Positions 4,056-58,258 of a DNA stretch of 64,000 bases are shown one piece after another. The stretch lies in contig NC_086108.1 of the NCBI RefSeq assembly GCF_963921235.1, forward strand, positions 13,082,001-13,146,000, in the 5' to 3' direction. The stretch's first letter is position 1. The number at the start of each line of letters is the position of its first letter. The notes under the pieces are model-generated. The model was not told the origin of the DNA, made no database searches, and worked only from the letters and a program-made list of their open reading frames with translations. The translations under genes were made by a program, and so were the position numbers. The stretch comes from Mobula hypostoma (taxonomy: Eukaryota).

Positions 4056-4181
4056 ACATTGATGAGTGTGCAAGAGGTGCAGCCTGTGGAGAGGCTGGAA
4101 TGTGCATCAACACTGAAGGCTCCTATCGGTGCAGATGTAACCCTGGATACCGGCTCCGTGCTGATGGCAACCAGTGTGCAG
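4056..4181 (+). CDS. LTBP4: LTBP4-like exon, cbEGF (D)IDECARGAACGEAGMCINTEGSYRCRCNPGYRLRADGNQCA
   Basis: ttttccag acceptor, G|gtctga donor, 126 nt, six Cys, calcium-binding consensus. Confidence 0.92.
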
Positions 4182-4532: not shown

Positions 4533-4658
4533 ATATCAATGAATGTTTTGAAGGAGATTATTGCGCCCCATATGGAGAGTGTCTGAACAGTGCAGGATCC
4601 TACACCTGTCTCTGTGCTGAGGGATTCACCACCTCTCCTGACCTCTCCACTTGCTTAG
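4533..4658 (+). CDS. LTBP4: LTBP4-like exon, cbEGF (D)INECFEGDYCAPYGECLNSAGSYTCLCAEGFTTSPDLSTCL
   Basis: cttttcag acceptor, G|gtgagg donor, 126 nt. Resembles recalled human LTBP4 DVNECLEGDFCFPHGECLN. Confidence 0.93.
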
Positions 4659-6819: not shown

Positions 6820-6942
6820 ATGTTGACGAGTGTAGTACCGCTGGCCGCTGTGGCAAAGGACACTGCACCAACACTGTCGGCTCATTTGAGTGCTCATGTG
6901 AACCTGGATTCCGAGTCGATGCGGATCGATCTCAGTGTCTAG
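6820..6942 (+). CDS. LTBP4: LTBP4-like exon, cbEGF (D)VDECSTAGRCGKGHCTNTVGSFECSCEPGFRVDADRSQCL
   Basis: ctttcccag acceptor, G|gtagga donor, 123 nt, six Cys. Confidence 0.92.
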   Translation: MLTSVVPLAAVAKDTAPTLSAHLSAHVNLDSESMRIDLSV

Positions 6943-19895: not shown

Positions 19896-20555
19896 TAAAT
19901 AAGGTTGAGAGAGTACAGAGAAAATTTACAAAGATGTTGCCAGAACTGAGTTGTATGGTAAGATTGAATAAGTTAGGACTTTATTCATTGCTACGTAGAC
20001 GATTGAGAAGAGATTTGATAGAGGTATACAAAATTATGAGGTTTATAGATATGGTTAATGCAAGCAGGCTTTTTCCACTGAGTGGGATGACAACCAGAGT
20101 TCATGGGTTAAGGATGAAAGGTGAAGAATTTAAGGGGAACATGAAGGAAAACTTTTTCACTCAGAAGGTGATGAGAGTGTGGAATGAGCTGCCAGCACAT
20201 GGTGCATGCGAGCTCAATTTCAATGTTTAAGAGAAATTTGGATTGGGATATGGACTGTAGGGGTATGGAGGGCTATGGTCCCGGTGCAGGTTGATGGGAG
20301 TCGGCAGTTTAAATGGTTCGCCATGGACTAGATGGGCTGAAGGGCCTGTTTCTGTACTGTAATTTTCTATGACTCCATGACCTATCAGAGGTCATTTGGG
20401 TGAAGGAAAAGGAGCGAAGAGCAAGTGGGAAGCTTTTGAGAGTGTCAGGACCATTCTGGAGCCTGTACAGGATGAAAAACAGTACTGGTATTTGTGAAAA
20501 CTGTGGTAGGTTCCAGCTAGACTGATTCTCATGGGTTCCCTGTTCTGATAAACAG

Positions 20556-20684
20556 ATCTTGACGAGTGTGTGGAATACCCGATGATCTGTGGCTCCAACC
20601 GTTGTAAGAACAGCCCCGGCTCCTTCCAGTGCATCACCGAGTGTGGAGTGGGATTCCAGCTGAGCCCTGCCCAGGAGTGTGTCG
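20556..20684 (+). CDS. LTBP4: LTBP4-like exon A, cbEGF (D)LDECVEYPMICGSNRCKNSPGSFQCITECGVGFQLSPAQECV
   Basis: aaacag acceptor, G|gtgagt donor, 129 nt. The C-x3-C spacing and CGSxRCxNSPGS motif match the corresponding LTBP4/LTBP2 repeat. Confidence 0.9.
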
Positions 20685-21614
20685 GTGAGTCGCTCCTCAT
20701 CTCTCTGAACCTGGTCACAGAGCTCTGCCTGATGATCAGTTCCCAACCTTCAGTGCTGGGGATTAAGGAATGGGGTTGCTGAGTCTGTGGATGCAGACGG
20801 ATCGTTGACATGCTGGGTTGTTATCCTTTATTGTGACCCTGTCCTAATGTCCCTCGCTGGTTTGTGGATCTTCAACAATCATGTAAGTAAGACCATAAGA
20901 TATAGGAGCAGAATTGGGTTATTTGTCCCATCGAGTCTGCTCCACTATTTCATCATGACTGATCCATTTTCCTCTCAGCCCCAGTCTCCTGCCTTCTCCC
21001 CATATCCCTTCATGAACCTACCTGGGGCTAGGTTATTGTGGATAGAGTCAAACCTAATGAGGAAAGGTCTTGTTTTCAAACATCTTTTCAGGGTAGTAAC
21101 CACAATATAATAGAATTCTTGATGCAGTTGGAGAGTAAACACCATAAGATCTAAACTACTGTCTTCAACTTAAATAGGGGCAATGATAATGTGTTGAAGA
21201 TGTCTAAGGTGGACTGGGAAATATTCCAAAAGCAGATACCGAGAAAGGGATTCTATGAGAAAGGGGCACGATCTGTGGATAACAAAGAAGATGAAGAATT
21301 CAATTCAATTCAAGTTTAATTGTCATTCAACCATACATGAATACCCATGATTACTGACAAATGAACCCGCATTCTTCCAGGGCCAAGGTACAAAACACAA
21401 TACCAACAGTCACACACAGCACAAAGCACACATATCACATACAAGATACCAAGATAACAAGCACATTACGATATCAGTAGGATACTGCCAGGCAAAAGAA
21501 ATCGTTTCGACCCTGAGACAATGAACGCCACAGAAATCTGCAGTCAACCAAAATACAGCTTGTCTTCTGCCAAACTTATGCTGGTAGTTGGGGGGGAGGG
21601 CACAGTAACAAGTA

Positions 21615-22360
21615 AGAAAAGTGGTGACAGATGGAATGCAGTGCTGGGAAATGTATGGTCATGCACTTTGGTAGAAGAAATAAAAGGGTAGTCTATTTTG
21701 TAAATGGAGAGAAAATTCAAAAATCAGATGTGCAAAGGGAATTGGGAATCCTAGTGCAGGATTCCCTAAAGGTTAATTTGCAAGATAAGTCAATGATGAG
21801 AAAGGCAAATGTGATGTTAGCATTCATTTCTAGAGGACTAGAATATATGAGCAAGGATGTAATGTTAAGGCACTGGTGGGACCTCGCTTGGAGTACTGAG
21901 AACAGTTTTGGGCCCCTTATCTTAGAAAGGATGTACTGACGCCAGAGAGGGTTCAAAGGAGGGTCACAAAATTGATTCCAGGATTAAACGGCTTGTCATA
22001 TGAAGAGCATGTTTTGGCTTTGGGCCTGTATTCACTAGAATTCAGAAGAATGAGAGGCGACTTAATTGAAGCAAATCAAGTGGTGAAAGGTCTTGGTAGA
22101 GTGGGTGTGGAAAAAATATTTCCTATGGTGGGGGAGTCTAGGATCAGAGGACACAGCCTCAGAATAGAAGGGTATCTTTTTAGATCAGAGATGAGGAGAA
22201 ATTTCTTTATCCAGAGAGTGGTGAATCTGTGGAATTGGTTGCCACATGTGACTGTGGAGGTCACGTCCAGAGGGTATATTTAAGGCAGAGGTTGATTAGT
22301 CAGGGCATGAAGGGCTGAAAGGGAAATGGATCAGCCATGATGTAATGGTGGAGCAGACTC
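21615..22360 (+). mobile_element. CR1 3' fragment
   Basis: ORFs 21631-21939 and 21972-22283 with CR1 ORF2 C-terminal motifs. Confidence 0.85.
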
Positions 22361-22894
22361 GTAGAAGAAACATAGAAAACCTACAGCACGTACAGGCCCT
22401 TCGACCCACAATGCTGTGCTGACATGTACTTACTTTAGAAATTACCTGGGCTTACCCATAGCTCTCTATATGTCTAAGCTCCATGTACCTATCCGGGAAT
22501 CTCTTAAGAGACACTATCGTATCCACCTCCACCGCCACCGCCGGCAGCCCGTTCCAGGCACTCACCACTCTGCGTAAAAAAACCTTACCCTTGACATCTC
22601 CTCTGCACCTACTTCCAAGCACCTTAAAACTGTGCCCTCTCGTGCTAACCATAAACAATGGGCCAAATGGCCTACTATGTCTTATGATCTTGTGATCAAT
22701 TTGAAAATAGGGAGTGAATATATAAAACGGAAGAAAACAATTAAGGTAAGTATGGAGCCTCTAGTGAATAAAGCTGGTGGATAATGAGAAATACAAAAAT
22801 GACATTTTTTTCAGTGTTTGCATTAGGCTTCACCATGGAGCACACCTTAGATATCCATATCAGTTGGGCTAATTTCAAACAGCCAGGAAGGGCA

Positions 22895-23045
22895 GCCTGC
22901 TAGCGTGGTGGTTAGCACAACACTTTACAGTACAGGTGATCCAGGTTCAATTCCCATGAATTGTACGTTCCCATGGGAGTTTCCTCTGCGTGCTCTGGTT
23001 TCCTCCCACACGCCAAAGACGTACCGGTTGGTAAGCTGATTGGTC
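22895..23045 (+). mobile_element. tRNA-derived V-SINE-like element (similar copy at about 62786-62918)
   Basis: A/B-box-like head tagcgtggtggttagc...ggttcaattcc and V-domain-like gtttcctc.g.gtgctctggtttcctcccaca. Confidence 0.6.
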
Positions 23046-23345
23046 TCAGCCATGTTCAGGCTCTACTGAAGTAGCATAAAGAAATGGGCAAGGTTGAGGA
23101 CCAGGAATGCAGTGGTCAGCTATGGAAACTGAGTGCAGCAGACAAGAGACACATCAAACTGATGTCCCCTCTAGATTGGAAGAAGTCCGCTCTGAACTCC
23201 CAGAGACCACTGGAACCCAAGTACCCTCCTCTACAGTCCAGAGAAGCCTTGTCAGACGTGGTCTAAATGGAAGAGTCAATGCCAAAAAGATATTCCTCCA
23301 AAGTGAGAACAAAGCCAAGTGAACAATAGTGAATGTGCACACGAG
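23046..23345 (+). mobile_element. Tc1 transposase N-terminal fragment
   Basis: KLSAADKRHIK...TGTQVPSSTVQRSLVRRGLNGRV.AKK matches the Tc1 HTH region; frameshifted. Confidence 0.75.
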
Positions 23346-24624
23346 TTGTGAATACTATCAACCACATCCATCTGACAGGACCACAGACATCCCTCCCTAA
23401 GCCTCCCACCTCCTGAACTTGGCCTGAAGTTTAACACTTACTGATGGAACAACTGTCGAGCATCTGTCAGCACTGAGCATCCCCTGCACCTTACTGTGAC
23501 TTAAGACACAGCGGATTCTCCAACCACACATCTCCCGTTCACTGCAGGACATCTAAAAGTGTGGGTGGAGTAGAGGCTCCTATCTATGTTGGAATTATTC
23601 CCAATGTTCCCAGGAACATATGAGAGTCTGGGATATCAATCAACAGACCAAACCTGAGGAGACTGAAGTGAGAAATCCCAGCTGGGAGGGATGAGTGTGG
23701 GGAACTCACAGCCTCACCAAGAAGAGCTCCAGTAAAAGGCTGCGGACATCCACGTGGGAATCACTGGAGGACAGATGTGACGGTGAGAATGCAATTTCTG
23801 CATGTGGGAGCCAAAATGTGTCAGTGTCCATTTGAAAAGAGAAGCATTAAGGATCTGAGGCTCTTCATGACACGGACAGTGTGGTAGGGAGCGTGATTCT
23901 CTCATGGTAAGCGAAGGGCTGGTTTGCACCTGAACTGGAGGGGGACTAATATCCTAGTGGGAAGATTTGCTAGTGTTACACGGGGGCAGGGGGATGTTTA
24001 ACCTAGCGTTGCAGGTGGACGGCAACCAGAGTGTCACAACAGATAGTGGTGTGCTTATGGCGAAAATGTTGTTAAACCCACATGCAAGGTCAGGAATCAA
24101 AAGGTTGAGCATGTTGGGACGAATGTTCGGAGCTGCATATATCTCAATGCAAGAAGTGTCGGGAAGTGTATGGTCTTGGTAGAAGAAATAAGAGCATAGT
24201 TCATTTTCTAAATGGAGAGAGAATTCAAAAATCTGAGGTGAAAAAAGGACTTGGGAGTCCTTGTGTAGGAGTCCCTAAAGGTTAATTTCAAAGGTTTCAA
24301 AGGTACATTTAATGTCAGAATGTACACAATATACATCCTGAAATGCTTTTTCTTCACAACCATCCACAAAAACAGAGGAGTGCCCCAAAGAATGAACGAC
24401 CGTTAAATGTTAGAACTCCAAAGTCCTCCCCCAGCTCCCCCCTCCCAAGCGTGAGCGGTAGCAAGCAACAATCCCTCCTCCCCCACCAGTAAAAAAAAAA
24501 TCAACACCCGCCACTGAGCACCCAAGTGTGAGCAAAGCAACAACAAAGACACAGACTTGCAGATACCCCAAAGACTTCATGTTTCACCTGGTATTCGAAG
24601 TACCACAGGCCCTCTCTCTCTCCA

Positions 24625-25541
24625 CTAAACTGAGTGGAAAAGCAAATTGTACAGAGGATGTGGAGAGTCTGCAGAGGGATATAGATAGGTTAAGTGAATG
24701 GGCCAAGGTCTGGAAGATGGAATACAACGTTGGTAAATGTGAGATTATTCACGTTGGAAGGAATAATAGAAGAGCAGATTATTATTTAAATGGTGAAAGA
24801 TTGCAGCATGCTGTTGTGCAGAGGGACTTGGGAGTGCTTGTGCATGAATCGCAGAAAGTTGGCTTGCAGGTACAACAGGTTATTAAGAAGGCAAATGTAA
24901 TGTTGGCCTTCATTACTAGCGGGATTGAATTCAAGAGCAGGGAGGTCATGCTGCAACTATACAGTGTACTGGTGAGGCCGCACCTGGAGTACTGTATGCA
25001 GTTCCGGTCTCCATACTTGAGGAAGGATACTATACTGGCTTTGGAGGCAGTGCAGAAGAGGTTCACCAGGTTGATTCCAGAAATAAAGGGGTTAACCTAT
25101 GAGGAGAGATTGAGTCACCTGGGACTATACTCTCTGGAATTCAGAAGAATGAGATGGGATCTTACAGAAACATACAAAATTTTAAAAGGGATAGATAAGA
25201 TAGAAGTAGGAAAGTTGTTTCCATTGGTAGATGAGACTAGAACTCGGGGACATTGCCTCAAGATTCAGGGGAGAAGATTTAGAATGGAGATGAGGAGAAA
25301 CTGTTTTTCCCAGAGAGTGGTGAATCTGTGGAATTCTCCGCCCAGGAAAGCAGTTGATACTTCTTCACTAAATATATTTAAGATACAGTTAGATAGATTT
25401 TTACATACTAGGGGTTATGGGGAAAAGGCAGGTAGATAGAGCTGAGTTAATGGACAGAACAGCCATGATCTTATTGAATGGCGGGGCAGGCTCAATAGGC
25501 CGGATGGCCTACTCCTGCTCCTATTTCTTATGTTCTTATGT
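24625..25541 (+). mobile_element. 5'-truncated CR1 with open C-terminal ORF2 and (ttcttatg)n tail, nested in another repeat
   Basis: ORF 24528-25439 from TKLSGKANC onward: LQRDIDRLSEWA, RPHLEYC.QF, LGLYSLEFRR. Confidence 0.9.
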
Positions 25542-25999
25542 CTCCATTTTCACAGCGAGCAGGGAGACGTAACAAAAAACTCGCTGCTTTATGGTGTTAA
25601 AAGTCCATTATGTTGCTTTTTTTCAAGCTCTGTGCCCAAAGATCACGAGTCTCTGGGCACACAGCCGCAGATTGTCCGACTCCCCTGACGACACACGGAT
25701 CTTCTGCCATGACACCGACCATTGATCCTCCCGTCTCCAGAGCCCCGAGATCCTAAGCTACCAAATCTGAGCCAGACTCTTAGGCTGAGCCTTTAGCGTG
25801 CCGAACAACGGTCAGTTATGAAACCCTGAGAGCGGGTCCCATTCCCGCAAAGAACCATAGTCAGCATGTAACTCCAAGTCCGGGTCTTCAAAAGAACCCT
25901 GAAAGGGAAAAATAAAGATATTAGAGATGGAAATAGAGCTGTTTCTGAAGATGCAACAAAGGAGTCGCTGTTTAGCACCATTATCACTCCGCTCCGCCT

Positions 26000-28720
26000 C
26001 AATTTGCAGGTTGAACTGGTGGTGAGGAAGGCAAATGCAATGTTAGCACTCATTTGAAGAGCACTAGAATATAAAAACAAGGATGTAATGTTGAGGTTTT
26101 AAAAAGCACTGGTAATGCTACACTTGGAGTATTATGAGCAGTTTTGGGCCCTTTATCTAAGAAATGATGTGCTGACATGAAAATGATTCCGGGATTGAAA
26201 GGAGCATTTGATGGCTCTGGGCCTGTACTCACTGGAATTCAGAAGAATGAGAGAGGATCTCATTGATACCTAGCAAGCATTAAAAGACCTCTGTAGAGTG
26301 GATGTGGAGAGGATGTTTCCTATGGTGGGGGAGTTTAAGACCAGATGACACAGCCTCACTATAGAGAGGTATTCATTTAGAATGGAGTTGAGAAGGAATT
26401 TCTTTCGCCAAAATGGTGAATCTGTGGAATTCGTTGCCACAGGCGGTTGTGGAGGCCAAGTTATTGGGTATATTTAAGGCTGAGGTTGATAGGTCCTTGA
26501 ATGGTCAGGGTATGAAGGGTTATGGGGAGAAGGCAGAAAATTGGGGCTGAGAGGGAAATGGATCAGCCATTATGTAATGGTGGAGCAGACTCAATGGGCC
26601 AAATGGTCTAACTGTACTCCTGTATCTCATGGCGGAGGAAAGGCAGACGAGCTTAGGGCATGGATCAGCATGTGGAATTACGATATTGTAGCCATTAATG
26701 AGAACTGCTTGCAGGAGGGTCCTGACTGGCAGCTCAGTGTTCCCGGACTCCATTGTTTTAGTTGCGACAGAGTGGGAGGGATTAAGAGAGGATCGATGAC
26801 GTTACTAGTCAGGGAGGTGGCACGGCAGTGGACAGACTGGAGAGCACGTCTAGTGAAGCTTTTTGGGTGGAACTGAGGAATATGACCAGGTTAATGGGAT
26901 TATATTATAGACTACCGAACAGTCTATGGGTTTCGGAGAAGTTTGTAGAGAGATCGCAGACGGTTGCGAGAAACATAAGGTTGTGATAGGTAATTTTAAC
27001 TCGTATGAGGAAATGAGACAGGGCAGGTGACAGGGGTTTGTGAAAGGGACCATAATACCTTTAGTTTCAAAGTAATTATTGGAAAGTATTCTAAATTGGA
27101 GGTCAATTTTGATGGTATCAAGATAGATCTGACAAATGTGGATTAGGATATGTAGGTTTTAGCAAAAGTGTACTTGGTAAATGGGAGGCCTTCAACAATG
27201 AAATTTTGAGAGTACAGAGTATGTTACTGTCAGAATAAAAGGCGAGGATAACAGGTTCAGGGAGCCTTATTTTTCCAAGAGATATTGTGGCCCTGGTTAA
27301 GAAAAAAGGAGGTACATAGCAGGTATAGGCAGGCAGGAACAAATTAGGTACTTGAGTATAAGAAATTCAAGAGAACACTTGAGAAGGGAATCAGGAGGGC
27401 TAAAATAAGGCAAAATGTTTCTCCAGAAGACAAGTTGAAGGAGAATCCTAAGATGCCCTAGCATGGGGCAAAATTGGTTGTCTGGTAATCTACGCGTGGA
27501 GATCAAAGAGATGCGGGAGATCTTAAATGTATTTTTTTTCATCTGCACTTAATGAGGAGAAGAATACAGAGTCTATAGATGTGAAGAAAAGCAGCAGCAG
27601 GTCATAGACCCTATAAGAGATTACAGAGGAGGAGGCATTTGCTGTCTTGAGGCAAATTAGGGTGAATAAATCCCCAGGGCCTGACAAGGTGTTCCCTCAG
27701 ACCCTGTGTGAGGCTAGTGTGGAAATTGCAAGGATAATTAAAACAACCTTAACCACAGGCATGATGCCAGAGAGTTGGAAGATAGCTAACGTTGTTCTGC
27801 TGTTAAGAAAGCTAGGAAGTTATAGGCTGGTGAGCCTGACATCAATAGTGGGAACATTATTGGAAGGGTGTTCTAAGTGACCAGATATATAGGTATTTGG
27901 ATAGAGGGGGACAGATTAGTCATAGTCAATATGGTTTTGTGCGTGGTAAGTCATGTCTAAATAATCTTATAGAGTCTTTCATGTAACTTACCAGGGAAGT
28001 TAATGAAAGCGAGGCAGTGGATGTTATCTACATGGATTTTAGCAAGGTTAACTGGATCAGTAAATTTGCATAAGACACTAAGATTGGTGGTGCAATGGAC
28101 AATGAGGAAGACTATCAGAGCTTGCAACGGGATCTAGACCAGCTGGAAGAATGGGCTGAAAAATGGCAGATGGAATGTAATGAAGACAAGTGCGAAGTTT
28201 TGCCCTTTTTGAGGACCAAGCTGTTGGTGAGGCCTAATTTGGAGTATTGTGTGCAGTTTTGGTCACCTCTCAAATAAGATTGAAAGAGTGCAGAGAAAAT
28301 TTACAAAGATGTTGCTGGGACTTGAGGACCTATTGAACATGTTAGGACATTATTTCCGAGAGTTTAAACATTTGAGGGTAGATTTGATAGAGGTATACAA
28401 AATATGAGGGGTATAGATAGGGCAAATGCAAGCAGGTTTTTTCCATTGCGGTTGGGTGAGGCTAGAGCCAGATGTCCTGGGTTATGGGTGAAAGGTGAAA
28501 AGTTTAAGGGGAACTTGAGGGGAAACTTCTTCACTCAGAGGGTGGCGAGAGTGTGGGACAAGCTGCCAGCAAGTTTGATTTCAATATTTTGGATATGTAC
28601 TTGGTATGAAGAGCTATGATCTGGGTGCGGGACGATGGGAGAAGGCAGTTTAATGGATTGGCTTAGACTAGATGGGTAGAAGCGCCTGTTTCAGTGCTAT
28701 AGTGGTCTATGACTCTGTGA
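26000..28720 (+). mobile_element. Degenerate CR1 fragments (a 3' end followed by an EN-to-RT fragment)
   Basis: Motifs YDIVAI.E..L, KSPGPDKVFP, YQSLQRDLDQLEEWAEKWQM, GNFFTQRV. Confidence 0.8.
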
Positions 28721-28895
28721 GGGATGGTCAAGGGCTGAAAGTGCAATGGAGAGAATGTGTCAGTGTGTGTTACGGTAACTGAAAGTGGTAGAGAAAGTGT
28801 GGTTCTGTGACAAGGAGAGGAGGTCTAACTGTGATGGTGAAATGTCCACTGTGACAAGGAGGATCGGTGCTAATGGTGGATTTCTTGCTCCACAG

Positions 28896-29021
28896 ACGTA
28901 GATGAGTGCAGCAATGCCACCATCTGTGGACCCAACGCCTACTGTCAGAACGTGGCAGCGTCGTTCCGGTGTCACTGTGACCAGGGTTACCAGATGGCAT
29001 CAGATGGCTCACAGTGTGTGG
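28896..29021 (+). CDS. LTBP4: LTBP4-like exon B, cbEGF (D)VDECSNATICGPNAYCQNVAASFRCHCDQGYQMASDGSQCV
   Basis: ttcttgctccacag acceptor, G|gtaaga donor, 126 nt. Has the CDQGY motif of the penultimate cbEGF before TB3. Confidence 0.85.
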
Positions 29022-30964
29022 GTAAGACCCGTGGTGGGAGGGAACTACCATGCTCAAGGTCACTCGAGTGTGGCAGGCGGTGACCACCAGTGAAACACTG
29101 GGTGACACCTATGGTTCTGGTCCTGGTGTCGAAAAATGTTATGAATCTCTGATGCTTCCCACCCCTCTCCATATTTCCCTCCCTCACCATTCTCCCTATA
29201 TCTCAGTCTTCTGCCTGTCACTCACTTCCTACTACCTTTTTCTGTCCTCTCTCTCCCCCTCTATCCCTTCCGTATCTCTCTGTCCCCATCTCTATTGATC
29301 TCTTTCACCCTCCTATTTCTCATACTCTTTCCCCTCTCTCAATCTCCCACCCCTTCCCTTCATCATTCCATGAGATCATAAGACCATTTGGTTCATCCAG
29401 TGTGCTCCACCTTTCCATCATGGCTGATTTATTATTCCTCTCAACCCCATTCTCCTGCCTTTTCCCTGTAACCTTTAATGCCCTTACTAATCAAGAACTT
29501 CTCAACCTCCACTGTGAATTCCATCACCCTTTGGCCAGAGAAATTTCTCCTCAGCTCTGTTCTAAAGGGACATCCCTCTATTCTGAGGCTGTGTCCTCTG
29601 TTTGTAGACTCCCCCAATTTGAGAAACATCCTCTCCACGTCTTCTCTATCTAAGTCCTTCAATATTCCATAGATTTCAATAAGATCCTCATCATTCTTCT
29701 AAACTCCAGCAAGTACAGGCCCAGAGACATCAGATACCCCTCATATGCTCACCATCATCATTATGTGCCATGTCATTTGACGTGGGTGATCTTCCCATTA
29801 CCTAGATTGTTTTTGGCAAGTTTTCCTACAGAAGTAGTTTGTCTTTGCTTTCTTCTGGGCAGTGCTTTTACAAGACGGATGACCTCAGCCATTATCAATG
29901 CTCTTCAGAGATTGTCTGCCAGTGATAATGGTCATACACCCAAGACTTGTGATATGCAAGTCTTCCATCCACGACCATCCACCACCTGCTGCCATGGCTT
30001 CAGGTGACCCCGATCCCAGGGATAAGCAGTGATATGGTGGGCCAAATTCATTACTTTTTGTAGGCTTTTCTGTTCAAAAGCATTGGTATTTCCATACCAG
30101 GCCATGGTGCACTACACATCTATAGAAATGGAATAGTGTATGATTTATGTGAATAGTTGTTTTAGAGTCAGCACATACTGGGTGACTGAAGGGCCTGTTT
30201 CTGTCCTGACCCTCTCTGTCATGCTCTGAGATGGAGTCACTGCCTATTAAGATCCCTGAGCCATTCAGGCCCTACCGTCACTGCAGCCTGCGCTGACGGG
30301 ACCCTGATCTCATTAACATTCTGTACTAACCCCGCACCTCACACTTCCTAGGACACTTCTTTACTCGGACATGGTACTCGGAAGCAGTGGGGTTAGGGGG
30401 TTGTTTTTCTTGTTCCGTTTTGTGCAGTTTGTTTTTTTTACGCATGGGGCGTGGGGTTGATGTGCTTGTGGCTGTTTGCACGCCTTGTTATTTTTCCACA
30501 TGGGGGTGGGGTTAATGTTTTTCTTTGAACTGGTTTCATGGTTTTCTTTGTTTTGTTGCTGTCTGGAGAAGACGAAACTCAGAGTTGTATACCACATAAA
30601 TTGATAATAAGTGTAGCTGAACCTTGCATTCATTAGGACCCTACACTAGTTAAGACTCTGTATTCACTCGGATCCAATGTGCAGAAGAATTGCATGATCA
30701 ATGTTACCTTGGACTTGTTATCACACCTGAATGCTGTTTTCATGAGAGGTCCGATTGTTCACCTGTGGCACAACATGGCCAGGTTCCTTCACCAGGACCC
30801 AATGTAGATGAAGGATTGTTCACCTGTATTGACCTGAAAACTAGCAATTCTGAAAACTGAATTCGAATCAGGTTTATTATCACTGATTTATGTCATGAAA
30901 TTTGTTGTTTTTGCAGCAGCAGTACAGTACAATACATAAAAAAACTATAAATTACAATAAGAAA

Positions 30965-31673
30965 TATATCTGAATTTCAGTTAATTGGGCCATTGGTTCA
31001 GTGGGACAGCCGCGTATTTGAGACAGGCTCTTAAAGAGCAAAAACAAATTGAGAAAGTAGCCGGGATTCCCTGTATTTATTTGGGACATTAATCTGCAGG
31101 AAACAGTTGCTGAACAGTTTCTAACTAGTATGACCGTTAGTCGCTACACCATGCTCAGAGTGAACAGATTTTAAATAGCGTCTGTTGTGTGTGTTTGTGT
31201 TCAAAACATCACTGATAGTTGGTGAGAAATAAGCAGTAAGACAATTCTGAACTGTTTTGCTCACCGCGGTTTCAAGCATTCAGGCCTAGAGATGCCAGAA
31301 ACAACTGAGAGTGAACATGAAACGTTTCGCTACTTCAACAAGTTAGGACAATGAAGAAATTGAAGGTATCAACAATTATCTTGAATGTTCTAATGAAAAT
31401 GAAGATTTGGAAGATACTATCATCTAAAGCATTATATGAAGGCAGTCCATTTTCTGCACTAGGTGTCTGCAGTAGAAACTAATACAAAGCTTCATAGAAT
31501 TAGTAGTGTTCTAATTTGTTCTGTATTTCATTTAAATACATAATTCATCACAGTTAAATGGTAGTTTAACTTTATAATACCTTCTTAACTATTTGCATGA
31601 AACTTCAGCTAACTGGGGACGACACTTAGCTGGGCCAAAATGGATGTGTGTCCCAATTAACCAGAATGCACTG
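30965..31673. mobile_element. Possible pogo/Tigger-like non-autonomous DNA transposon
   Basis: Imperfect TIRs ...cagttaattggg / cccaattaaccagaatgcactg with internal gggaca/tgtccc subterminal motifs. Confidence 0.45.
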
Positions 31674-32429
31674 GTGGAAGAGAAAGGAAAGAAAACAGTA
31701 AGGATGCTTACATGTCCATTTAGAAATCCGATGGCCAAGGGGTAGAAACTGCCCAGTGTGGGTCTTCAGGCTCCTATACCTTCCCCTTTGATGGTAACAA
31801 TGAGAAGAGGGCATGTCCTGGGCAATGGGGGTCCTTAATGATGGATGTGACCTTCCTGAGGCATCACCTTTTGAAGATGCTGGGGAGGCTAGTGCCCATG
31901 ACGGAGCTGGCTGTATTTGCAACTTTCTGCAGCTTTTTCCCGAACCTGTGCAGAGGAGTTTCCATACCGGACACCAATGCTACCAGTCAGGATGCTCTCC
32001 ATGGTGCATCTGTAGAAATTTGCGAGAGTTTAGTGACGTACCAAATCACCTCAAACTCCAGATGAAATATAGCCACTGATGTGCCTTCTTTGTAACTGTA
32101 TCAATATGTTGAGACCAGGATAGATCCTCAGAGAAGCTGACACCCAGGAACTTGAAATAGCCCACTCTTAAGAAAACTAAAAGAGTAGAGCAAAAAGGGA
32201 ACAAGAAGATAGTGAGGGGGTGGTTCATTGTCACTCCAGAAACATGTAGACATCTGTGGCAGATTCAAGCCAGACTAGGTCGTCATGTATGGGTCCGTCC
32301 CCCCACCCCACCCCCCACCCTTCCCGAAACAGTGACATAAACCTTTGTGCCTCTGTAAACACAGCTGAGTTCTTTCAACATTCCATTGCTTGACCAAATC
32401 TCGGTGGCTGACCTGTTTCTATGAAACAG

Positions 32430-32558
32430 ATTTTGACGAGTGTGTGGAATACCCGACGATCTGTGGCTCCAACTGTTGTAAGAACAGCCCCAGCTCCTTC
32501 CAGCGCATCACCGAGTGTGGAGTGGGATTCCAGCTGAGCCCTGCCCAGGGGTGCGTCG
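32430..32558 (+). pseudogene. LTBP4: Duplicated exon A' (D)FDECVEYPTICGSNCCKNSPSSFQRITECGVGFQLSPAQGCV; possible pseudo-exon or variant exon
   Basis: Copy of 20556-20684 with 7 substitutions, 6 of them nonsynonymous, including loss of EGF Cys4 and gain of a Cys next to Cys3. Splice dinucleotides and reading frame are intact. Confidence 0.7.
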
Positions 32559-33099
32559 GTGAGTCGCTCCTCATCTCTCTGAACCTGGTCACAGAGCTCT
32601 GCCTGATGATCAGTTCCCAGCCCTCAGCTCCATCTGTGTCCTTACCCAGTTTGTTAAACCAAGAGCACTTTTACAGAGCGAAAAGGGCACAACGTTGGAA
32701 CACAAGGACGTTAACAAGGAGACTATGTCTTCATTTCGCTGGAACATCTTCTCCTGCTTTATGGACTCTCAATGCAGCGTAATTCAAGACTTTGAGAATC
32801 ACCTTCAACCTCTGGCTGAAGCTGAAGGAACTCATTGCAATCATTTGTCACTGGTTGGTGAACTGGCCAAGGAAAGAATCAACCCATCGCAGGGAGTCTG
32901 TCTGAGAGTGTGATGGGGCATCTGAGTTTGCCATTGCTAGGTGTGTGAGATAGCCGTGGTGAAGGTGTGATGGAGTGACAGCGACAACCTGACAGCGTGA
33001 TAGAAGAAGTGTGATAAGGAGAGGAGGTTTAACTGTGATGGTGAAATGTCCACTGTGACAAGGAGGATCGGTGCTAACGGTGGATTTCTTGCTCCACAG

Positions 33100-33225
33100 A
33101 TGTAGATGAGTGCAGCAATGCCACCATCTGTGGACCCAACGCCTACTGTCAGAACGTGGCAGCGTCGTTCCGGTGTCACTGTGACCAGGGTTACCAGATG
33201 GCATCAGATGGCTCACAGTGTGTGG
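33100..33225 (+). CDS. LTBP4: Duplicated exon B', same peptide as 28896-29021
   Basis: One synonymous difference (GAC/GAT) from exon B. Acceptor and gtaaga donor are intact. Confidence 0.85.
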
Positions 33226-34607
33226 GTAAGACCCGCGGTGGGAGGGACTGAGAGTATCTATCAAGGATCGACCACGTTGGTTGAGATCACTCAGTGCCAG
33301 GTGGTGACCACCGGTGAAACACTGGGTGACTCCTGTGGTCCTGGTCCTGGTGTCGTAATGCAATGGGAATCTCAGTAGTAACTGGAACCATTGGCATCAC
33401 ACATTGAATTATAGAATCAGACAGCCGTCGATGAGGCTGTTCAGCTGTCCTTGTCTATGGTAGCACTCAGTAACCCTCTAAGTAGTCTTGCCATTGCATT
33501 TTTTTCCCACAGCCCGCAAATCTTTGTCCTTTGAATATTTTTCCAATTTTTTTCAATATTTTTCAACCTGATTTCTTTCATGCATCATGGAACAAGACAT
33601 GCTTCTATCTCCCTTTGCTTCAAAGTTCAAAGTACATTTATTACCAAAGTATGTATGTATTAGATTTGTCGCCTTACAGGCAGCCACAAAACAAAGAAAC
33701 CAAAAAGAACCCATATAAAAAAAGACCGTTGAACACCCAATGAGCAGAGAGAGAAAAACAAATTGTGCCAACAATAAAAGTAAACAAACAGCATTCAGAA
33801 CAAAAGTGAGTCCTCAGACACAAAGCCCAGAGCAGCCAGAACCGGCCCACAGCCTCAGCCCAGAACATGGTGGAGTCAATGTCGCAGAGCCCCGAGCAGC
33901 CGAGCAGGCTGACAGCTTCATGCTCAGTGCAGTGGAGAGCCAAGTGAAGGTCACAGGGCACTGAGCGGAACCAGCCCCACTCTTGCTTCTGGTCCCGACA
34001 CCCTTCCTTTTCAATCCATCTGCCTCTGCACTTAACTCATCCTCGCTGTAAGGCCTGGGCTCTGACTCATTGATACACTCTGATCCTGGACCCCGCAGCC
34101 ACTTTTCAGCCCGTACCTGACCTTTCCAAGTCGTCTATCCGTTACACGTTTCATGACCTGTAGCATCTCTTGCAAATCACTCTAAGTCCCTGCTTCTTCC
34201 TGCTTGCTCCCTCATAAATCTCCAGACTGCAGTATCTTCCAAATGTCTGGGCTCCAGAGGGTGAAGAGCTTCTTCATCACGAACACGACCCAGTGATTTA
34301 TAAAGATTTCACTTCATTTTCTCGCTTCATTACTCTTTGCCAAAACATCAAAACCCATGATCCTGTCTGCCTTAGTACAGCCAAATTCAGAAGCAGATTT
34401 AATATCACCAACATATGTCATGAAATTTGTTATCTTTTCAGCAGCAGTACAATGCAATACATGATAGTAGAGAGAGAAAAACATGAATTACAGAAGATTA
34501 TATTTATATATAAAATAGTTAAATAGGTAGTACAAAAACAGAAATAAACAAGTAGTGAGGCAGTGTTCATGGGTTCATTGCCCATTCAGAAATCGGATGG
34601 CAGAGGG

Positions 34608-35471
34608 TGTTACGTACCCCGTAACTGGGTTGCCAAACCAGCAGAAATGGATCACTCAGTTGGAGTCTGGATTACTAGAACTAAGAAAATTTTATTAAAG
34701 AAACAAGCAACACAGTAATCGAAAGGATAATACATGCAACAGTTCAGCAATGATAAACACACATGTGCACAGAATTAAGATAACAGCATCAATCAAGCTC
34801 TATCATTGTCTAGGGGTAAATGACCAAATTTCAAAGTGACACAAAAGTTCAATCCAATTCAGTTCAGTTCACAGTAATCGTTGCCATGGCGATGGACAAC
34901 ATGGGGGGAGGGAGAGAGAGAGAACGAGAACGACTGATCATTCAGAACGGCTTCCACTCACAGACCGGCGATATGGCTCACAAGCAGCTTCCGGGCGGGT
35001 CCTTGGTGATGTCACCTGAGGTCACCGACTGTGACCCCTCCTCCAGATGCGGTCGATCCTCTGCAGTGAACCCGGCACCCAAGCGAGGGCGGACACACAC
35101 CGGGTTCCTGCTGATCGTACCATTCCACCCTGTGCGTTTAAGGTCCGGTACTTCCCACCGACTCATGACAGGCGCACCGCTTCCAGGGTCTCGTTACCTC
35201 GGGTGTCGTGTGTGTCCTGCCTTAGCGAACCTGTCCCTTTTTATCCCCCTGCTGGGGTATCGCCTGTCCATCACTTCAAACAGTTCAGGGTTCAAAGGGG
35301 GAGCCGCTCTAGACAGCTCTCTCTCCCGTCCCTTCATTACACATCTCCAGACGCTGCTCCATTGTTCCTTATCTCTCCTTCCCCTGAGGACAGGTGGCAG
35401 ACCACTTGCTGATGCCACTGATGCTAACCCAGGCCAGCAAACATCTTAATTTTATGTGTATTCTCGTCACA
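34608..35471 (-). repeat. 3' LTR (864 bp)
   Basis: Direct repeat of 41117-41979; adjacent to the PPT, read on the minus strand as aaaggggggaag. Confidence 0.95.
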
Positions 35472-41116: not shown

Positions 41117-41979
41117 TGTTATGTACCCCGTAACTGGGTTGCCAAACCAGCAGAAATGGATCACTCAGTTGGAGTCTGGATTACTAGAACTAAGAAAGTT
41201 TTATTAAAGAAACAAGCAACACAGTAATCGAAAGGATAATAAATGCAACAGTTCAGCAATGATAAACATACATGTGCACAGAATTAAGATAACAGCATCA
41301 ATCAAGCTCTATCGTTGTCTAGGGGTAAATGACCAAATTTCAAAGTGACACAAAAGTTCAGTCCAATTTAGTTCAGTTCACAGTAATCGTTGCCATGGCG
41401 ATGGACAATGTGGGGGGAAGGAGAGAGAGAACGAGAACGACTGATCATTCAGACACGGCTTCCACTCACAGACCGGCGATATTGCTCACAAGCAGCTTTC
41501 GGGCAGGTCCTTTGTGATGTCACCTGATGTCACCGACTGTGACCCCTCCTCCAGATGCGGTCGATCCTCTGCAGTGAACCCGGCACCCAAGCGAGGGCGG
41601 ACACACACCGGGTTCCCGCTGATCGTACCTTTCCACCCTGTGCGTTTAAGGTCCAGTACTTCACACCGACTCGTGACAGGCGCACCGCTTCCAGGGTCTC
41701 GTTACCTCGGGTGTCGGGTGTGTTCTGCCTTAGCGAACCTGTCCCTTTTTATCCCCCTGCTGGGGTATCGCCTGTCCATCACTTCAAACAGTTCAGGGTT
41801 CAAAGGGGGAGCCGCTCCAGACAGCTCTCTCTCCCGTCCCTTCATTACACATCTCCAGGCGCTGCTCCATTGTTCCTTATCTCTCCTTCCCCTGAGGAAA
41901 GGTGGCAGACCACTTGCTGATGCCACTGATGCTAACCCAGGCCAGCAAACATCTTAATTTTATGTGTATTCTCGTCACA
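41117..41979 (-). repeat. 5' LTR (863 bp)
   Basis: Direct repeat of 34608-35471; followed on the minus strand by PBS-like tggggttctcgtctgcgat and then gag. Confidence 0.95.
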
Positions 41980-44543: not shown

Positions 44544-44687
44544 ATGTGAACGAGTGTCAGATCATGCAAGGTGTTTGTGGTGCAGCATCTTGCGAAAATG
44601 TCCCTGGTTCATTCTTGTGCATCTGCCTGGATGAGAAGGAAGAGTTTGACCCCATAACAGGACGATGCAATCGTCGAGCTGCGCACG
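44544..44687 (+). CDS. LTBP4: LTBP4-like exon, last cbEGF before TB3, (D)[47 protein letters not shown]
   Basis: ctctttgcag acceptor, G|gtacat donor, 144 nt. Close to recalled LTBP4 QGVCGAALCENVEGSFLCVC...EEFDPMTGRC. Confidence 0.92.
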
Positions 44688-58093: not shown

Positions 58094-58258
58094 CGACGCC
58101 TGCAAGGGAGGAGAATGAATGCTACTACAACCTGAATGATGTGCAGCTGTGCCAGAATATCCTGGCAAGCAATGTTTCACGGCAAGAGTGCTGCTGTACT
58201 GTCGGAGAGGGATGGGGCAAAGACTGCAGAATCTACCAGTGTCCTGTGTACGACTCCG
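58094..58258 (+). CDS. LTBP4: LTBP4-like exon, first part of TB3 (8-Cys) domain, (A)TPAREENECYYNLNDVQLCQNILASNVSRQECCCTVGEGWGKDCRIYQCPVYDS
   Basis: ttctttcttccag acceptor, G|gtaaga donor, 165 nt. Has a CCC triplet, the N-x-S sequon, and the CCCTVGEGWG...CRIxQCP motif typical of LTBP4. Confidence 0.93.

Follow-up and report, generated by a model that had tools for sequence, protein, structure and literature searches.

Does near-identity between tandemly repeated exons mean that the repeat is young or an assembly error, and does each copy still contribute to the protein? These questions are raised by a stretch of 64,000 nucleotides (nt) from the devil ray Mobula hypostoma (NC_086108.1, positions 13,082,001 to 13,146,000; hereafter the window), in which two exons of an LTBP4-like gene, A and B, each encoding a calcium-binding EGF (cbEGF) module, recur downstream as A' and B'. 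LTBP4 is a cutis laxa gene, and its product is an elastic-fibre and TGF-beta-anchoring protein. Our analysis concerned the M. hypostoma window itself; relatives were compared through protein models, and the edges of putative conversion tracts were drawn from the window DNA alone. On this basis we consider it likely that A' is skipped and decaying, that B' is spliced after B to give a main form A-B-B'-C with one EGF more than the shark form, and that the duplication is old and has been homogenised by gene conversion.

The duplicated exon pair

Ten LTBP4-like exons were mapped in the window, in the order S, e2, e3, e4, A, B, A', B', C and TB, and no exon of another gene was identified there. The four that make up the duplication are the following.

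20556-20684, plus strand: exon A, an intact cbEGF of A-type (three residues between Cys4 and Cys5); EGF_CA 35.5 bits; 100% identical to XP_062919690.1
28896-29021, plus strand: exon B, an intact cbEGF with an N-glycosylation sequon; EGF_CA 39.1 bits
32430-32558, plus strand: exon A', a degenerate copy of A with intact splice sites; EGF_CA 18.4 bits
33100-33225, plus strand: exon B', with the same peptide as B and one silent difference (33101); EGF_CA 39.1 bits

An earlier note on this DNA had described the recurrence of A-B as A'-B', and we found the duplication to be real at these coordinates: A and A' (129 nt each) and B and B' (126 nt each) are all multiples of three in length, are flanked by AG and GT, and lie in phase 1-1. 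The contrast that it drew between a repeat-rich A-B intron of about 8.2 kb and an A'-B' intron of 541 nt also stands, with an A-B intron of 8,211 nt and self-repeats of the window covering 45% of 20754-28805 versus 0% of 32628-33009. Likewise, the C/T difference at 28897/33101 that was proposed to separate B from B' is genuine and silent, and it is the only base at which the two exons differ. Beyond these points, we observed that A' is not intact and that homology between the copies is limited to the exons and short flanks and does not extend into the intron interior.

Loss of conserved residues in A'

EGF domains pair their cysteines 1-3, 2-4 and 5-6 (PMC8446450), a pattern from which A' departs, its Cys4 being replaced by arginine. 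The seven bases of 129 that separate A' from A are all transitions, and six of them are nonsynonymous. Upon comparison with relatives, four of the changes proved private to A' (L>F, R>C, G>S and Cys4>R), while at the remaining two nonsynonymous sites Thr10 and Gly41 of A' agree with exon A of a second Mobula species and thus represent ancestral or shared states. The turn glycine and the Cys4 that A' has lost are invariant in 48/48 A-type units, and the phenylalanine and cysteine that it has acquired at the L>F and R>C columns occur in 0/48. The EGF_CA score falls correspondingly from 35.5 bits in A to 18.4 bits in A', under the Pfam cut-off of 27 bits, whereas A, B and B' all show six-cysteine EGF spacing and the calcium-binding consensus. 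In human cutis laxa, cysteine loss in LTBP4 domains has been described to change conformation (PMC8446450). A' retains an open reading frame, undamaged splice sites and a motif resembling a branch point. Collectively, these comparisons suggest that A' is likely a decaying pseudo-exon.

The loss of Cys4 is offset by a cysteine gained beside Cys3 (32474, 32504), so that the total is still six, and both cysteine changes are transitions by which a CpG is lost or created. This even cysteine count is probably due to chance.

Use of B and B'

The 394-residue chain S-e2-e3-e4-A-B-B'-C-TB is an exact substring of XP_062919690.1, the RefSeq LTBP4-like protein of M. hypostoma. The extra B was thus already annotated; the model omits A' and is silent on the origin of the repeat, and the degenerate exon and the conversion pattern were identified in the present work. 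We examined 15 of the 16 cluster members, comprising the myliobatiform models of four species (nine Hypanus, two Hemitrygon, one M. hypostoma and three from the second Mobula). Two B units are present in 14/15 models and two A units in 0/15, the single-B model being Hypanus isoform X6. Given that the two B units of Hypanus and those of the second Mobula differ from each other, they do not represent one exon counted twice. In XP_072130505.1, from the second Mobula, the second B runs straight into the TB exon and exon C is skipped.

The N-glycosylation sequon of B was found in 49/49 B-type units and in no A-type unit (one mislabelled wrasse unit left out), and evidence of constraint on B and B' from the window itself is only suggestive. 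N-glycans of LTBP-4 matter in some of its interactions according to PMC12527114, which does not identify the B-exon site.

Contigs from four runs, X1, X2, X4 and X6, were aligned to 20400-33600 at a likeness of 88; these runs were only guessed to be RNA (guess shares 0.06-0.16 over six candidates). X1 and X4 yielded contigs over 33099-33225 with 0 differences and the B'-specific T, which end at the exon edges and then run on for 25-29 letters away from the local sequence. X2 has a contig over exon A (20554-20683) that departs from the local genomic sequence at either end. X6, from a related organism (4 differences), provided a 348-nt contig with a B-type exon flanked by 112 and 109 letters, of which the depth in the A bin accounts for the 112 letters as A, the 109 letters lying off the stretch. 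The mean X2 depth of 5.09 in the bin holding A' is unassignable because the adjacent bin holds a repeat with a depth of about 5,700 and the A exon of a relative can match A' almost as well as A; the X2 depth in the bin of B is likewise unassignable. X1 and X4 show no coverage of A, B or A', and X6 none of B or A', to which we attach no weight because a filter removes some records. Taken together, the contigs speak for A and a B'-type exon being spliced.

Distribution and age of the duplication

The one model of the sawfish Pristis reads A-B-A-B with identical A units, and both Narcine models have a single A and a single B. Among 37 shark models (one 99-residue fragment excluded), 33 have one A and one B, 4 are without one or both, and 0 have two; the Narcine and shark counts are of protein models, which an unannotated remnant in those genomes would escape. 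The gene tree branches in the order Narcine, then Pristis, then Hypanus plus Mobula. From this order and the distribution of the models, the simplest history has a single duplication that postdates the divergence of electric rays; should the low-quality Pristis model be erroneous or reflect a separate event, the minimum origin is the ancestor of dasyatids and Mobula. Judged from the protein models, the duplication is common to dasyatid stingrays, is not confined to M. hypostoma and is likely not recent, and it is probably common to sawfish as well. No LTBP4 of skate, chimaera, lungfish or placental mammal was recognised among the matches listed.

Outside the cartilaginous fishes, the same A-B pair of the same rod exon order is duplicated in tetrapod LTBP4. 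Amphibian models are mostly A-B-A-B with strongly diverged copies (Pleurodeles X1 being A-B-A-B-B), platypus and three ratites show A-A-B, two wrasses have three-exon duplications of their own, and coelacanth, sturgeons and most teleosts have A-B. The tetrapod copies fall in clades apart from the ray copies: all chondrichthyan A units group together (100/99), as do all chondrichthyan B units (100/100), and the ray duplication thus seems to have arisen independently of that in tetrapods. The outcomes also differ, with amniotes retaining two A units and myliobatiform rays two B units. One ancient gnathostome duplication, in which shark A would correspond to amphibian A2, was set aside: sharks, Narcine, coelacanth and most ray-finned fish have single copies, and an LTBP2 unit has the same residues. 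Full conversion could conceal an older gnathostome origin.

These comparisons bear on the remaining proposals of the earlier note. Its statement that mammalian LTBP4 has two A-type repeats here agrees with the A-A-B models of platypus and the echidna cluster. The expansion that it called independent and lineage-specific looks separate from that of tetrapods, judging from the chondrichthyan A and B clades, but is not confined to one species, being found in dasyatids and probably sawfish. Of the rods that it envisaged, A-B-B' is the annotated form of XP_062919690.1; an A-B-A'-B' rod with two sound EGFs is not supported, given the missing Cys4 and turn glycine of A' and the absence of a second A from the myliobatiform models. 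TB does follow the extended rod, though not immediately, as had been thought, since B' and TB are separated by a further cbEGF exon (44544-44687).

Stepped identity between the copies

Similarity between the two copies declines in steps, from 94.6-99.2% in the exons to about 97% in flanks of 69-90 nt, weaker further out, and none in the intron interior. The segments concerned are listed here.

20685-20753, plus strand: flank after A, common with A' (putative conversion tract); 67/69 identical to 32559-32627, then 25%
20754-28805, no strand: repeat-rich interior of the A-B intron, unrelated to the A'-B' intron interior; 45% self-repeat cover
28806-28895, plus strand: flank before B, common with B' (putative conversion tract); 87/90 identical to 33010-33099
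29022-29134, plus strand: flank after B, an apparently older tract; 22 nt at 95%, beyond which its resemblance to the flank of B' is weaker and interrupted by gaps
32628-33009, no strand: unique middle (382 nt) of the A'-B' intron, matching nothing else in the window
33226-33358, plus strand: flank after B', homologous to 29022-29134

BLASTN aligned 20550-20753 with 32424-32627 at 95.6% over 204 nt (E 9e-90) and 28806-29134 with 33010-33358 at 86.9% over 352 columns (E 2e-124). The outer downstream flanks of B and B' gave an alignment score of 115 versus 18.8+-3.6 for shuffled sequence, with 0/200 shuffles as high; the interiors of the A-B and A'-B' introns scored 32 versus 34.2+-3.8, a value reached by 148/200 shuffles, and thus show no homology. 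Because the middle 382 nt have no match in the A-B intron, the A'-B' intron is not merely a transposon-free A-B intron, and a deletion origin of the short intron was ruled out, its middle being unrelated sequence. Tandem Repeats Finder reported nothing at the duplication. The stepped identity therefore argues for layered conversion tracts on an old duplication and not for a young duplication, and, since the tracts contain intron, the template would not have been spliced cDNA.

Comparison of the units between species points the same way. Within each of five species the B copies differ by 0-2 residues, versus 4-5 between Pristis and the others, and both Pristis B copies have three residues missing from all myliobatiform copies. 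B and B' of M. hypostoma both carry valine at position 2, where the other 8 copies in two-B batoid species have isoleucine, and A' has Asn15, otherwise found only in Mobula A. In unit trees of about 42 columns, with many open forks, A' clusters with Mobula A and not with Pristis A2 (99/91 in the 49-row tree, 88/88 in the 13-row tree). The copies are thus closer within than between species, as in concerted evolution, and if the two B units of dasyatids and Mobula have one origin, the shared Val2 and Asn15 need conversion. Collectively, these patterns suggest that local gene conversion has likely kept the copies alike, and that their young look is misleading.

The A-B intron is also where thousands of multi-copy sequencing contigs stack. 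A Pfam search of four open reading frame remnants in it returned no relevant match; we take these remnants to resemble fragments of CR1-type long interspersed nuclear elements (LINEs). A stop-free stretch of 325 codons at 24462-25439, likewise without a Pfam match, presumably resembles the end of a LINE reverse transcriptase. The B'-C intron contains an 865-nt direct repeat (34608-35471 versus 41117-41979, 96.8% identity), possibly the paired long terminal repeats of a single element or else the result of recent duplication.

Gene identity and the surrounding rod

The six exons outside the duplication are as follows.

91-210: S, the first exon in the window
4056-4181: e2, a mapped exon
4533-4658: e3, a mapped exon
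6820-6942, plus strand: e4, the single-copy cbEGF exon upstream of the duplication
44544-44687, plus strand: C, the single-copy cbEGF exon downstream of it
58094-58258, plus strand: first exon of the TB domain; Pfam TB 44.9 bits; gap-free to LTBP1 1KSQ

The gene shows the architecture of the LTBP family, a cbEGF rod followed by a TB (8-Cys) domain, and matches to both Pfam models, EGF_CA and TB, exceed their cut-offs. Alignment of the TB exon to PDB 1KSQ, the TB domain of LTBP1, is free of gaps (E 1.6e-21), whereas its alignment to fibrillin TB requires a 2-residue gap. TB domains of the type that binds latency-associated peptide (LAP) are marked by a longer Cys6-Cys7 spacing, which the TB domain here has, and LAP binding is accordingly a prediction from its sequence. 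The exon order of the rod matches bony-vertebrate LTBP4. In an unrooted C-terminal tree of 17 rows, the chondrichthyan gene falls outside an LTBP2 clade that contains the shark's own LTBP2. The tree was built without LTBP1 and LTBP3, and Xenopus is absent because the anchor pattern was unmatched; the LTBP4 assignment therefore comes mainly from exon order. RefSeq names vary between LTBP4-like and LTBP1-like. These comparisons support identification of the gene as LTBP4-like.

Several further observations concern the family. The second TB domain of Xenopus tropicalis LTBP4 has two residues between Cys6 and Cys7 versus four in the other LTBP4s checked, and we assume that it is perhaps unable to bind latent TGF-beta. 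S is the last unit of a much larger array extending upstream of the window. Myliobatiform models have 12-13 near-identical copies of the two cbEGF units that open the rod, versus one of each in Pristis, Narcine and most sharks, and the pair is also amplified in coelacanth (13, R-type), sturgeons, several teleosts and Scyliorhinus torazame. EGF pairs of at least 80% identity occur in 18/30 LTBP4 versus 2/6 LTBP2 models in a set ranked by summed domain score, a ranking that favours long rods, and in 3/40 models of a TB-ranked set.

Proposed history and alternatives

In the history that we favour, the A-B block would have been duplicated in tandem in the ancestor of stingrays and devil rays, probably before the sawfish split and after that of electric rays, as the gene models suggest. 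The introns of the two copies have diverged beyond recognition and are repeat-filled. Short, DNA-templated conversion tracts anchored on the exons would have repeatedly overwritten one exon with the other, and A' would have been freed from selection once conversion had last acted on it in the Mobula lineage. Through B' the protein would gain a further cbEGF with its N-glycan sequon, placed two domains ahead of the LAP-type TB.

Several observations weigh against this account. An approximately unbiased test that left identical rows free did not reject a tree with the B copies arranged by position (p = 0.105), and no branch was starred in the 13-row subset tree. The low divergence of B and B' falls short of significance by itself (Fisher p = 0.066 versus A/A', Poisson p = 0.079 versus the flanks). 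A itself carries two changes too, at variable columns, and A' retains splice sites and six cysteines in total, so A' may be included at a low level. The Pristis model is marked LOW QUALITY and its copies are near-identical, which a separate recent or false duplication could explain. As for the transcripts, the runs are RNA by guess, the contig of run X6 passes through a single B, and no B-to-B' joint was found among the joints listed, in which transposon contigs dominate; co-inclusion of B and B' consequently rests on the gene models. Mobulid Gnomon models are described as built from RNA-seq and cross-species protein alignments in bioRxiv 10.64898/2026.10.27.761883. Such models could chain identical exons.

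We regard it as unlikely that, within the same history, each transcript carries one B (A-B-C or A-B'-C), the second being redundant or mutually exclusive and kept by conversion, with the A-B-B models as artefacts. Identical B and B' peptides and non-significant constraint would fit such a scheme, as would the single B of Hypanus isoform X6 and of the run X6 contig, the only long contig across the region; however, De Bruijn contigs collapse identical tandem exons, so this contig is non-discriminating, two B units occur in 14 of the 15 models and differ from each other in Hypanus and the second Mobula, and B is intact in all four species while A' has decayed despite the same conversion regime. 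Several independent tandem duplications, in sawfish, in the myliobatiform ancestor and perhaps again in Mobula, with conversion in a minor role, appear improbable to us. This spot has been duplicated elsewhere (tetrapods, two wrasses, the extra B in Pleurodeles), clustering of the copies by species is also what recent duplication gives, and the Pristis model is of low quality, but a recent Mobula event would be expected to show homology along the entire intron, or else a clean deletion junction, instead of 382 unrelated nt between 97% flanks, and a single event is the simplest explanation of the two B units in both dasyatids and both Mobula.

There is very little reason to expect that A' is a used, altered exon that gives some A-B-A'-B' proteins with a non-canonical module. 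Its intact splice sites and branch-point-like motif, open frame and even cysteine count are compatible with use, as is the X2 depth of 5.09 in its bin; against this, the lost cysteine and glycine are invariant in 48/48 units, a second A appears in 0/15 myliobatiform models, that depth is not assignable to A', and LTBP4 cysteine loss alters conformation in human disease (PMC8446450). A false duplication arising from two haplotypes in the assembly is extremely improbable: the exons are indeed 95-99% identical, but the intron interiors and outer flanks are unrelated, unlike two haplotypes, and two B units recur in the models of three other species.

Implications for the LTBP4 rod

The central rod of LTBP4 ranges across vertebrates from 8 to about 20 cbEGF units, and the same pair has been duplicated more than once. 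Human LTBP4 also has the forms Delta-E and Delta-2E, reportedly without one or two EGF units; there the rod likewise varies by whole phase-1 EGF exons, but through skipping. The two splice forms are named, and LTBP4 is given as a Duchenne modifier, in PMC9027394. Domain repeats are known to undergo concerted evolution, reportedly a rare phenomenon (PMC5100051); the repeat families of that study resemble the present case in that units are closer within a protein than between species and repeat gain and loss is high. Its main text contains 0 mentions of LTBP, EGF or fibrillin, and the exons here differ in lying 4-12 kb apart among introns without similarity. A literature search of titles and abstract openings returned no account of the ray A-B duplication, and the main text of a manta genome preprint contains 0 occurrences of 'LTBP'.

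A broader reading, which we offer tentatively and consider doubtful as a whole, is that the LTBP4 rod behaves as an evolutionary accordion with two hot spots, conversion-kept ray copies, and selection on rod length and glycan number. The A-B pair would have been duplicated independently in tetrapods, rays and wrasses with opposite outcomes (A-A-B in amniotes, A-B-B in myliobatiforms), the rod-start pair would have been amplified independently in rays, coelacanth, sturgeons and teleosts, and exon-anchored conversion would have kept the ray copies near-identical across introns without similarity, presumably for >100 million years. If so, rod length and glycan number would adjust how far latent TGF-beta lies from the matrix-anchoring end, and the devil-ray rod of 19 units versus 8 in sharks would reflect changed elastic tissues.

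The mechanism is of an already known kind, and any effect of the duplication on function or phenotype would be a prediction from sequence. The locus offers a compact, datable two-exon duplicate that would be in the middle of its resolution, with one copy dying, one kept, and conversion masking its true age. Near-identical tandem exons, it suggests, need be neither recent nor assembly errors, and natural rod-length variants such as these may be used to ask whether length affects elastic fibre assembly or TGF-beta release.

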